NCBI GenBank assembly: GCA_964016885.1
Contig: OZ024740.1
Coordinates: 126,728,001 to 126,792,000 of the forward strand
Length of the DNA stretch: 64,000 nucleotides
Source of the DNA: Eledone cirrhosa
Taxonomy: Eukaryota
Reading direction: 5' to 3'
In this document: one piece after another, positions 17,225-53,412 of the stretch
How positions within the stretch are numbered: the first letter of the stretch is position 1
How the letters are laid out: each line of letters begins with the position of its first letter
Program-made: the position numbers and the translations under genes
The notes under the pieces: model-generated
What the model was told of the DNA's origin: nothing
Database searches by the model: none
The model's input: the letters and a program-made list of their open reading frames with translations, nothing else

Positions 17225-19050
17225 TTAATGTAAAGGATTAAATGTAAAGGATGCAATGAAGATTATATAGGACAAACTATACTCACACTAAGAAACAGAA
17301 TGACAGTTCATCGCCAACAATTACGAGATCCAACCACGAGACAGATACCACTAAGTGCATATCTAGACATTTGCGCAAGTAATAAGACACCCAAATTCCA
17401 AGTCTTCCCATTTTACCTATTCGCTAACAATACAACAGAACAAATACGAATAAATAAGGAAAATATGTTTATTCAAAAATATAGACCACCATTAAATATG
17501 GTTTAATATACATTATGTCAACACCATAATATGACATACACACGCACACATAATACCTTCTACTTTAGAAAATAAAAACCCGAACTAAATAAACCTTAAC
17601 ATACGTTTGCACTGACAATACAACAGAACAAATACGAATAAGTAAGGAAACTATGTTCATTCAAAAATATTCCTATTAAAGGAATCATTTTCCTACACAC
17701 ACACACACAATATATATATATATATATATATTCTCTTCATCTTAACATGCTAACCATACTCCCACACACATAACACCCATACACACACATAACAACCCCC
17801 ACACCTACAACTCCCTCCCCCATTTCTACTAATAGAACCACTTTCCTAGACACATATATACACACACACAAAATATATATTCTCTCCATCTTAACATACT
17901 CGCACACATACACATAACACCCATATACACACACACACAAGTCCCTCCCCCATTTCTACTAATAGAATCATCTTCCAATACACACACACACATACACACA
18001 CCCACACACACACGCACACACACAAACACACAAATAAACATACATATCTTTACTTCAATAGAAAATCTGAACTCTGACACCTCAGCGAACTAACCATATT
18101 CACTGAACCAGTACAATTCTCCCAATCCCATTTCTCTTGACCACTATCTTTCCCTTGTCATAACATTCTCTATAAAGGCTACAGAATAGATTTCCAAATG
18201 AGGGCGCGAAAATGTAATGAAAACTTGTTCACGTGAAGCCAAATTTCATTTATAACCAATCAAATCACGTTTATTAAAAAAAAGCCTTCGTGAGCCACCT
18301 TTTTTTTAAGTAAAGAAATTCAAACACACACACACACACACAACACACACACACAACACACACAAGCATACAAATAAACATACATATCTTTACATTCTTT
18401 ATTCAATAGAACATCTGAATTCTGACACCCCAGCGAACTAACCATATTCATTGAACCAGAACAATTCTCCTATCCCTTTCTCTTGACCATTATCTTTCAC
18501 TTATAGAATTCTCTAAAAAGGCTACAGAACGGATTTCCAAATAAGGGCACGAAAATTTAATGAAAACTTGTTCACGTGACAGCCATAATTTCATTTAAAA
18601 CCAACCAAAAAAAAGCCTTCGTGAGCCACTTTTTTCAAGTAAAAAGAAATTCAAACACTCATATATGAAAAAAACAACCTGTGACAACCCCCCTCTTATT
18701 TGAAGAACTTTTGTAACGCGAACTGGCGCGAAATTTATTATAATTATTGACAAACCAATCAAATTACTACTCGAAAAACCTGACATTTCGAGCCACTTTT
18801 TCCATATAAAGCAAGTAACATTCAGAGACCAACCAGATGTGAGAAAAACAACAGACCCTCCATCTCAACTCACCTTTTGAAAAGCAGAAGAACTGCGAAA
18901 CCGGTAAAGGAACCAAATAAATATATATATATTTTTTTAAAATAAGACTCCAGTTGCATTTTCGATTTCATCTCTTTTTCTTTATACTTTCACTCGTGTA
19001 GGACACCTCGGTTATTTTTCAATTTGTAAAAAAAACCTCACTTTCTAATA
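17225..19050 (+). mobile_element. 5'-truncated copy of the Neptune-type PLE at 41342-46353 (GIY-YIG C-terminus + 3' pLTR)
   Basis: ORF 17300..17506 nearly identical to the end of 44462..45112; UTR colinear with 45113-46353, with an extra ~350-bp internal duplication; flanked by (TA)n. Confidence 0.93.
18873..18910 (+). ncRNA. Minimal type I hammerhead, U3-A8 variant (family C)
   Basis: CCTT TTGAAAA GCAG aagaa CTGC GAAA CCGGTA AAGG; palindromic stem III ACCGGT. Confidence 0.82.
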
Positions 19051-19554
19051 TATATATATATATATATATAATTATCATGATGGAACCTATAAACTAAGAA
19101 AGGTGAGGTAGTGACATTATAATTAAAAATATAAATCAGTATCAATTAAACCAGCTTTATAACTATATATCACACACGTACACACTCAGATAGGTTGTTT
19201 TGCCAGAAAATTAGTGTATGGATTGAACTCACCCTGGTTCATCAGCGTGAGTGGTAAATGAATACATTCCAAACGATTCTAAGAGAACTTATAATAACTG
19301 CCATACAACACATGGGGGAGAGAAGGAAATGCTTGTATGAGGCAATACATTAGTGGGTTGGGTGGGATGAGTCACTAGAATTGGCAGCCCAAAACCACTC
19401 AAATAAAGGTGCTTAACAGTACAGAGAGAGAGAAGACCGTTGTTAGGAGCAATATGTCAAATTAAAGTAACTTGATAACCATACACTCTCTCTCGTGTGT
19501 TTTCTTCTCTATATTATATAAGATATATTATATATATATATATATATAATATAT

Positions 19555-19740
19555 AATTTGTTCTACTTTTGGCACAAAGCCAGCAATTACCCAGTATATT
19601 ACTGGTACTTTATTTTATCGACCACGTAAGGATGAAAGGCAAAGTTAACCTCAGCAGGATTTGAACTCAGTTCATAAAGGGATGTAACTGTGCTGCAAAG
19701 CATGGCGTCTGACCCTCTACCAATACTCCCAATCCACTAT
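19555..19740 (-). mobile_element. tRNA-derived SINE, same family
   Basis: Reverse complement of family motifs (CTGGTACTTTATTTTATCGAC..GAAAGGCAAAGTT..GATTTGAAC). Confidence 0.82.
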
Positions 19741-50359: not shown

Positions 50360-50808
50360 ATATTGTTATACTTTGGGAGGGTCATGCTGCCAATAAGAAA
50401 CACACGCACCAGTGCTTTCACTTCAATTTATTATAATACATTTATAAATTTAGGAATTTATAAATTTCCGGTTGGTTGGTTGGTTCCACAACCAGATGGT
50501 TGTTTATATATTGTCAAAGTTCTTTCGTCACACATTCAGTGACATACACAGAAACAAGAATGGCGTAGGACAGAATAAAGGAGATGCAAAAAACAAAGAA
50601 AAGAATCCCCAGTCACTGAAGAGTTCACATAATGTGTGACGAAAGAACTTTGACAATATATAAACAACCATCTGGTTGTGGAACCAGCCAACCAACCGGA
50701 AATTTATAAATTCCTAAATTTATAAATTTATTATAATAAATTGAAGTCAAAGCAACTGGTGCGTGCGTTACTTATTGGCAACATGACCTTCCCAAAGTAT
50801 AACAATAT
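50360..50808. repeat. Inverted repeat (~185-bp arms) with a hammerhead at 50612-50654 (family I)
   Basis: GTCA CTGAAGA GTTCACAT aat GTGTGAC GAAA GAAC TT TGAC; the left arm lacks 12 nt of the motif. Confidence 0.85.
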
Positions 50809-51084
50809 CGGTTTCAACACACGTTTTCAGATAAAGAATCTTGCTAAACAAATTCAGAAACGAAATATATATATATACATATATAATATATATATATATA
50901 TATATATATATATATATATATATATATATATATATATATATATATATATATATATACATACATATATATATATATATATATATATATATATATATATATA
51001 TATATATATATATATATATATATATATATATATATATATATATATATATATAAAAGAATAGAGGTGTAACATACAAGTTATGAT

Positions 51085-53412
51085 ATATTGGTAAACGGAA
51101 TAGAAAATGCTGACAAGTTGTTCACAGTGAAAAATAGTTTAATTAGGAATAAGTGAGAATTAGTAATAGTATTGGTTTTTAGTTTTCAGTTTTGGTTTTT
51201 AGTTTTACCGGTTGCGCATTTCTAATGTTTTTCAAAAATAATTTTGAGATAGAGCGTCCGTGATGTTTGCTCTGATCTGATTAGTTTGGGGAATTCTACC
51301 TGTTTTTATGTTAAAAAAGTGGTTCCAGCGGTATTAAAATAAGTTTTGCCCCAATTCGTGTTGCAACAATTCTTGTGGTCAAAACAATTTTGATTGCTCG
51401 GTAGAGGTCATGTGAATGTAAAAAATTGATTTTGCGCCAAATGTAGGTTTCTGTCGGCTGACTGAGAAATAAGTCTTTCACAACAAATATGGTGTGTGTG
51501 TGTGTGTAGTAGTAGTAAAGAGGTTCGTTGTTGTGATAATGGTCAGCAAGGATGTGCGTGCGAACCGCACCCTGTTGACAGTTCAAATGCCTATTAAGAC
51601 AAGTGTGAGTGTGTGTGTGTCTGTGTATGTGTGTAGCAGAGTAAATCGTGTTAGAGGGATGGTCAGTAGGAATGTGTCTGTAAGTGTGTGGGGGATATTT
51701 TAACATGTTAAAAGATATTTTTCAGCTCTTGTCTTATACGGAGAATTGTGTGTGTGTGTGTGTCTATGTCTCTTTATATCTTAATGTACGCGTGTGTATG
51801 TGTGTGTATATATGTGTGTGTGAGAGAATGTGTGTGTGTGTGTGTGTATGTGTGGGTGGACCAGTATATTTTTCTGGTAAAATGGTGTACATTATTCGAT
51901 ATTTTCAATAAAATCGATTCTCTCAATAGAACATCAAAAACCTTAATAATAAAAGGTGTGAAATGATATATAGTATTGGCATAATACCAAGGTGTGTGTG
52001 AGTATGTCCAGATTGTAAGTACTGCAAGGAGGATCCATTAGGCTTTGCCGTATTGGAATACCTGTGCACAAATATGTATCTGGAGTGTGTCCAGAAATTG
52101 TATACCTGTGCACAGATATGTAACTGGAGTGTGTCCAGATTGTACGTACTGCAAGGGGAATTCATTAGGCCCTGTCGTATTGGAATACCTGTGCACAAAT
52201 ATGTATGTGCCCATCAGTGTGCAATGCATGTGTGCGTTTATGTATGTGTGTGTGTCGGCACGTTTATATCTATACACATCAAAAGGTATGCAAATGTGTG
52301 TATATTTGTGTTGCACCATAGAACATATGTTTACGTATGTCATTGTGTTTATATGTGGGTAGAGATGTATGCTGATGTAGGTATGTATGTTGACGTGTGT
52401 ATGTTGTGCGTTCGTCTTAAGGAGAAGTGTTTAGACGGGGTACGTATTTGTTAATAAAGTAAGATTCCTTGCTGATGCGCTGGGTGTGGGTGGCATTATC
52501 TTTTAATTTGTAGAGGGGAAAGATTATGACGTTGGGATGATTTTGGGCGGCACAGGTATCAATGTGTTCACTCAGTGGTATTTTCCTGTATTCCCGTATT
52601 TTAATTTGGGATCTATGGACAGTCATCCGTTGGCGGGGGCTGTTTTTGGTCTGGCCTATGTATTGTTCTCGACAACCTGAGCAAGTTAATAAATATATTA
52701 GATTTTCTAAAGCGCATGTGAAATTGTGTTTTACTATAAAACGTTGTCCTTCTTTGAAATAGAATTCTGAACCCTCTATTAGGTTGATGCAAATGTCACA
52801 GTTGGGTCTATCGCATTTTTTTACTGTGGGTTTCGTTGTTGTGGTTGGCAGTACTTTGGCATGTGTTATGATGTTTTTCATTGACTTAGATTGTCTTTTG
52901 CTCTTTATGATATCGTGTGTTCGTGGGATTTGGTTCATTTTGTGTTCCTTTTTCAACACACGAATGTTCTGGAGGCTGGTGTCAAAGGCCTCATTGTTGA
53001 GGGGGTTGTATGTGGAGATGTAGGGAATACTTATTTCTCAGTCAGCCGACACAAACCAACATTTGGCGCAAAATCAATTTTTTACATTCACATGACCTCT
53101 ACCGACCAATCAAAATTGTTTTGACCACAAGAATTTTGCAACACGAATTGGCGCAAAACTTATTTTAATACCGCTGGAACTACTTTTTTAACATAAAAAC
53201 AGGTAGAATTCCCAAAACTAATCAGATCAGAGCAAACATCACGGACGCTCTATCTCAAAATTATTTTTGAAAAGCATTAGAAGTGCACAACCGGTAAAAC
53301 TAAAAACCAAAACTGAATACTAACCAATACTATTACTAATTCTCACTTATTCCTAATTAAACTATATTTCACTGTGAACTATTTGTCAGCATTTTCTATT
53401 CCGTTTACCAAT
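51085..53412 (-). mobile_element. 5'-truncated Neptune-type PLE with inverted 5' pLTR
   Basis: ORF 52417..52959 (CDRPNCDIC, LIY..YIG); 53028-53412 is the reverse complement of 51088-51473; degenerate U3-A8 hammerheads at 51203-51238 (-) and 53264-53299 (+). Confidence 0.92.

Follow-up and report, generated by a model that had tools for sequence, protein, structure and literature searches.

In the active core of the hammerhead ribozyme, C3 and G8 form a Watson-Crick pair (PMC3884650), and the general acid is proposed to be the 2′-OH of G8 (PMC6155905). Natural covariation of this pair from C3-G8 to U3-A8, in motifs active in vitro, was described by Perreault et al. 2011 (PMC3088659), and U3-A8 was also reported for about 1,300 matches in the Cercyon Penelope-like elements (PLEs) of Schistosoma (Cervera and de la Pena 2014, PMC4209133). 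Here we describe U3-A8 hammerheads in a 64,000-nucleotide stretch of the Eledone cirrhosa genome (GenBank assembly GCA_964016885.1, contig OZ024740.1, forward-strand positions 126,728,001 to 126,792,000; hereafter the window, in whose own numbering positions are given) and in their relatives genome-wide. The swap is already published, including in PLEs, and the present case adds another instance, its families better mapped than in the first annotation of this DNA. As in S. mansoni Cercyon, the covariation occurs at a PLE terminal-repeat position, in thousands of copies, and with a palindromic helix III suited to dimers (PMC4209133); unlike in the Cercyon report, it is mapped here by family, being fixed in Neptune-type elements, present in one Hydra-clade family and a retrozyme, and split within a further family, D. 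We consider it rather probable, from the sequences, that U3-A8 replaced C3-G8 in these PLE and retrozyme-like type I hammerheads as a near-neutral compensatory swap, with the ribozyme predicted still to cut.

All the window motifs cited in a first-pass annotation of this DNA were present and read as type I hammerheads, and they belong to the 3′ ends of PLEs or to a retrozyme. The type I core (NUGANNA, GAAA and UH, with helices I to III in type I order) was found in family A, family C and a 591-bp tandem unit. The window inventory comprised 15 C3-G8 motifs in five families versus 10 U3-A8 motifs in four. A structural descriptor that left positions 3 and 8 free, and demanded U4 and GAAA, so that families B and N2 were missed, was run over 1.064 Mb (the window together with 100 further stretches, each of 10 kb, three of which adjoin it). 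It returned 91 matches (66 C-G, 24 U-A and 1 C-A), which are not independent, as 25 belong to one tandem family; the reversed control returned none, and the matches therefore exceed chance expectation. Folding z-scores of the motifs were weak (−0.01 to −2.3, positive for N2) and were not used as support. An Rfam scan of the window gave no hammerhead among the 150 of 188 matches that were listed, only microsatellite-driven matches. Genome-wide copy numbers, given below, were obtained with patterns carrying exact flanks and so favour young copies.

Family C supplied three identical 38-nucleotide minimal motifs with the core UUGAAAA, as first annotated: at 18873-18910 (plus strand), at 41413-41450 (minus strand) in an inverted 5′ copy, and at 46179-46216 (plus strand) in the 3′ pseudo-long terminal repeat (pLTR). 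They have a GUA site and a helix III consisting of a 4-nucleotide CCGG palindrome. Among 6,499 genome-wide matches, 6,472 were U3-A8, 9 C3-A8, 3 U3-G8 and none C3-G8, the deviants comprising 17 copies without U3 and 10 with U3 and without A8. The element encodes a reverse transcriptase (RT) and a GIY-YIG endonuclease, seen in the window as a frameshifted copy at 42787-45112 (plus strand; Pfam RVT_1 and GIY-YIG). Family N2 has the same motif layout, but with GCAA or ACAA in place of GAAA; its hammerheads lie at 51203-51238 (minus strand; UUGAAAA with GCAA, that is, U3-A8 with C13) and, in an inverted copy, at 53264-53299 (plus strand; UUGAAAA with ACAA), and a GIY-YIG endonuclease fragment lies at 52420-53037 (minus strand). 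Both variants of the box had been noticed as alterations of GAAA; however, GCAA is the N2 consensus, present alongside U3-A8 in 4,095 of 4,183 copies (about 98%), and not a change in single copies, and ACAA at 53264 probably arose from GCAA by CpG decay. Only the N2 consensus lacks the A13 of the GAAA box; families A, C and D have it, as does the 591-bp unit.

The marks of Neptune elements were found in both C and N2: DKG, GxKF, a CX2-5CxxC linker, two cysteines inside GIY-YIG, and a C-terminal endonuclease. An intact copy of the C protein reads DKG, GLKF and CX4CxxC, and the N2 linker was read from translations. The linker is common to Nematis too, hence our cautious label "Neptune-type". The families with U3-A8 had been described as four different ones with otherwise unalike flanks. 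This holds, or nearly so, for the other pairs, but the flanks of C and N2 align (z = 12.7 from just the 80 bases upstream, with none of 300 shuffles scoring as high) and protein identity between them is about 55%, so that the two are relatives and count as one origin. U3-A8 with GAAA or GCAA and CCGG is common to the Neptune-type families C, N2, N3 (one copy) and N4 (5 of 7 loci), and is likely ancestral to the group. The RT open reading frames (ORFs) at L256 and L257 (minus strand) belong to a different retroelement, resembling a long interspersed nuclear element, that adjoins Neptune-type copies.

The first-pass annotation had also invoked Naiad elements together with Neptune; the Neptune part stands as Neptune-type, the element at 2723 carries Hydra marks and the 591-bp unit has no ORF. 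This element, family A, is represented by a frameshifted copy (3-1588, plus strand) of an RT end together with a C-terminal GIY-YIG endonuclease that lacks the internal cysteine pair (no CCHH cysteines). Like the Hydra-clade PLEs of Craig et al. 2021 (PMC8557442), it has an RWK-like motif (RWR here, RWK in its relative H), DKT, CxCX5C, a C-terminal GIY-YIG, (TA)n targets and a 3′ type I hammerhead, and by the motif diagnostics of that paper we place it in the Hydra clade. Naiads have an N-terminal endonuclease and DKA (PMC8557442); since the endonuclease of family A is C-terminal and its motif DKT, with neither Naiad mark present, assignment to Naiad was rejected. A provisional "Poseidon-type" label was likewise replaced on the same diagnostics. 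The family A hammerhead (2718-2811, plus strand) has the core UUGAGAA at 2723, as noted earlier, with a long helix II, a 5-bp helix III and a GUC site. Genome-wide, 2,115 copies had U3 versus 11 that did not, and A8 was present in all of the first 100 matches listed; a shorter pattern gave 17 G8 copies, 16 with U3 and 1 with C3, for which the control also gave one match.

The related Hydra families B and H have C3-G8. Family B, a young family, has type I hammerheads at 47963-48011 (minus strand) and 50210-50258 (plus strand), and also in L187-L200 and L246-L247, with the core CAGAAGA, in which U4 is replaced by A. This U4A state was found in 14 of 14 endonuclease-linked loci and in 17,572 exact matches, versus 178 with another base. 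In File S2 of PMC8557442, every one of the 26 Hydra motifs listed is C3-G8 with U4, unlike family A, with its U3-A8 and long helix II, and unlike family B, with A4. Family B also has a U-U pair at 10.1-11.1, and the U10.1-U11.1 mismatch occurs in Perreault et al. 2011 (PMC3088659) too, as does the C3-G8 to U3-A8 change; the portions of that paper available to us make no mention of C13 (N2) or A4 (B) cores. A literature search on U4A and A13C hammerhead cores returned no relevant paper, a weak negative, as earlier papers or supplements may list them. Changes at A13 and U4 lower hammerhead activity. C13 in about 4,100 copies and U4A in about 17,600 are more unusual than the U3-A8 swap itself. 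The 5′ ends of A and B copies showed no pile-up at the predicted cut site, which is no evidence either way on cutting. We observed that 5′-truncated stubs of A and B (many loci, e.g., 27288-27345) mostly begin 30-50 nucleotides upstream of that site, within the hammerhead or where it starts, and that an inverted copy often comes next. Family H (L201-L214, L248-L249) has intact ORFs (784 aa), a C3-G8 hammerhead and a helix II insert of about 90 nucleotides.

The 591-bp tandem unit (23007-25004, including a partial copy in inverted orientation) is young and retrozyme-like, with copies about 99% identical. Its four hammerheads (23249-23336 on the minus strand, 23660, 24251 and 24842) bear the annotated core UUGAUAA, a long helix II and a GUC site. 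As in metazoan non-LTR retrozymes (PMC7229834; Li et al., preprint 10.64898/2026.07.22.740005), it is non-coding and tandemly repeated, each unit having one type I hammerhead; unlike them, it is longer than the 150-450 bp quoted, is U3-A8, and has a PLE-like inverted 5′ copy. Its seven G8 copies were all U3-G8, with no C3-G8. Elsewhere, L097:215-2060 contains a tandem 615-bp unit with a U3-A8 hammerhead and long helices II and III, whose layout resembles that of a C3-G8 528-bp unit (L100); no alignment between these two was found. No homology was found among the 591-, 615- and 528-bp units and the 3′ regions of A, B and H.

A new result was that a fifth family, D, is split into C3-G8 and U3-A8 sister subfamilies. 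Its window insertion (25131-25823) is short, palindromic and non-coding, with C3-G8 hammerheads at 25299-25379 (minus strand) and 25571-25653 (plus strand). Its 962 genome-wide matches, counted by eye from lists, comprised 869 U3-A8 (by subtraction), 60 C3-G8, 11 U3-G8, 4 C3-A8 and 18 others. With both core positions masked, an unrooted tree of 44 of 51 loci (7 truncated loci being left out) separated C-G and U-A loci as sister groups (support 100/98) with one change. The groups are 18-22% apart, and the U-A form was also present on a contig from another organism and study. These sequence comparisons make the state change in D a recent one, whichever its direction. The idea that U3-G8 copies are a caught intermediate in D was dropped (p = 0.12). 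An endonuclease assignment made on one copy was rejected: PLEs nest in (TA)n, and the endonuclease upstream of that D copy (L128) has its own hammerhead. Because such nesting makes one-copy linkage misleading, D and the 591-bp and 615-bp units were left without an assigned RT, and no autonomous partner of D was found.

The compensatory nature of the pair, claimed at the outset, was borne out across families. We counted about 17 families or subfamilies with C3-G8, 8 with U3-A8 and none uncompensated, several of them on few copies, plus one old Neptune-type family left unresolved by one U3-A8 copy and one C3-A8 copy. Positions 3 and 8 are complementary in every family consensus, the pairing itself being taken from the literature. 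Uncompensated consensuses as common as U3-A8 had been named as the outcome that would speak against compensation; none was found among family consensuses. Where a copy is uncompensated, this is rare decay of that single copy; the families first cited have U3-A8 as their fixed state. The lone C3-A8 descriptor match came from a family in which 71 of 84 copies have C3-G8. A Fisher test on the family counts was not used, as the families are related and the count includes the old Neptune-type family.

The suggestion that the core had been adopted either repeatedly or anciently proved right on both counts: U3-A8 was inherited across Neptune-type families, and the pair changed at least once more inside D. 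The four families originally cited represent at most three origins. Protein trees of 7 and 6 families gave two changes but did not resolve A, B and H; neither the 591-bp nor the 615-bp unit is placeable among the origins. Taken together, the core pair changed state at least twice, and most likely three or more times; the swap would likely have occurred at least three times, in the Neptune-type ancestor, in Hydra family A and in family D.

AT-biased mutation, the other cause proposed earlier, was supported by singleton transitions among 14 family B copies (16.4 per 1000 at non-CpG C/G versus 4.6 at A/T, 3.6-fold; p ~1e-13). We propose that rare double changes, two C/G-to-U/A transitions in a source copy, would produce the swap, with a U-G wobble as a plausible intermediate, and that AT-biased mutation would supply the changes and selection for the pair would keep them. 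A U-A pair would retain both Watson-Crick pairing and the position-8 2′-OH, and the short C and N2 motifs would cut as dimers through the CCGG palindrome. Several observations weigh against this account. The bias is weak in family H (2.6 versus 1.5 per 1000, few events), and fixed differences between D subfamilies have no AT excess (26 A/T-to-G/C versus 23 in reverse, unpolarised). The D tree, being unrooted, does not fix the direction of the C-G/U-A change, and U3-G8 enrichment in the basal U-A subfamily amounted to 4 of 5 insertions versus 5 of 17 control changes, which is not significant at the p-value given above. In the protein trees, a group made up of A and the Neptune-type families is not rejected (p-AU 0.24 and 0.28), and the published Hydra list was made with a canonical descriptor and is blind to U3-A8 (PMC8557442). 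Finally, large C13 or A4 families show that the core constraint is not strict.

These points bear on how often the swap arose and on whether cutting matters. If U3-A8 had arisen once, long ago, the C3-G8 families would be reversions or separate ribozyme acquisitions. U3-A8 is present in all resolved Neptune-type families and in Schistosoma Cercyon PLEs (PMC4209133), and the trees permit A and Neptune as one group; yet the C-G and U-A groups of D are separated by only 18-22%, C3-G8 is the state of published Hydra elements from several phyla (PMC8557442), and the family A protein shares more identity with that of C3-G8 family B (52-54%) than with that of any family having U3-A8 (22-29%), which makes a single origin improbable. 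We give no more credence than this to the view that the motifs are largely vestigial, their core drifting with AT-biased mutation while cutting is dispensable. Drift would yield U3-G8 and C3-A8 consensuses, and none was found; both positions changed together in D; and G5, A6, A9, G12, A14, A15 and U16 are fixed across families with unalignable flanks, most of these bases having been demanded by the descriptors. In favour of the vestigial view, C13 or A4 families amplified to thousands of copies, copies show no accumulation of 5′ ends at the predicted cut site, and Naiads thrive without canonical hammerheads (PMC8557442).

U3-A8 would carry a cleavage-rate cost. It might have been selected for that reason, if slower cutting benefits the element, for instance by keeping RNA of more than unit length intact up to reverse transcription. 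The U3-A8 subfamilies of D exceed their C3-G8 sister (869 versus 60), two other very large families have cores expected to be weaker (A4 with 17,572 copies, C13 with 4,095), and PLE hammerheads have low activity in vitro (PMC4209133). However, C3-G8 is still the majority state, and copy number depends on much besides the ribozyme; we regard such selection as unlikely, if somewhat less so than a single origin or vestigial motifs. A broader proposition, that PLE hammerheads here were pushed toward slower cores, as the repeated U3-A8 switches, C13 and A4 may together suggest, is doubtful but carries more weight than any of these alternatives. If these cores cut slowly or not at all, Penelope transposition would have no need of fast cleavage or would even suffer from it, and some of the most successful families would escape standard CUGANGA/GAAA searches. 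The near-neutral compensatory swap remains the reading we favour.

These families provide a natural test set within one genome: in D, C3-G8 and U3-A8 sisters can be compared as a matched pair. Through the A4 and C13 families one can ask if cutting is required of the ribozyme in the first place, a matter relevant to the role of PLE hammerheads. Canonical descriptors undercount such motifs. Apart from the families discussed above, decayed pieces of endonuclease and RT from additional Hydra-like PLE families, to which no hammerhead is assigned, lie at 36670-37443, 3730-4395 and 39346-40157 (all minus strand). Three further C3-G8 families are present in the window, one at 32625-33305 and 35025-35495, one at 28009-28064, 41078-41131, 58046-58099 and 62960-63013, and one at 10699-10763 and 49881-49946; elsewhere, at L081, one of the three forms a unit of about 480 bp that resembles a retrozyme. 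In a minimal hammerhead family with a two-base helix III loop (L064:9344-9417, L082:3438), 3 of 4 copies carry C at position 4, possibly a U4C subfamily.

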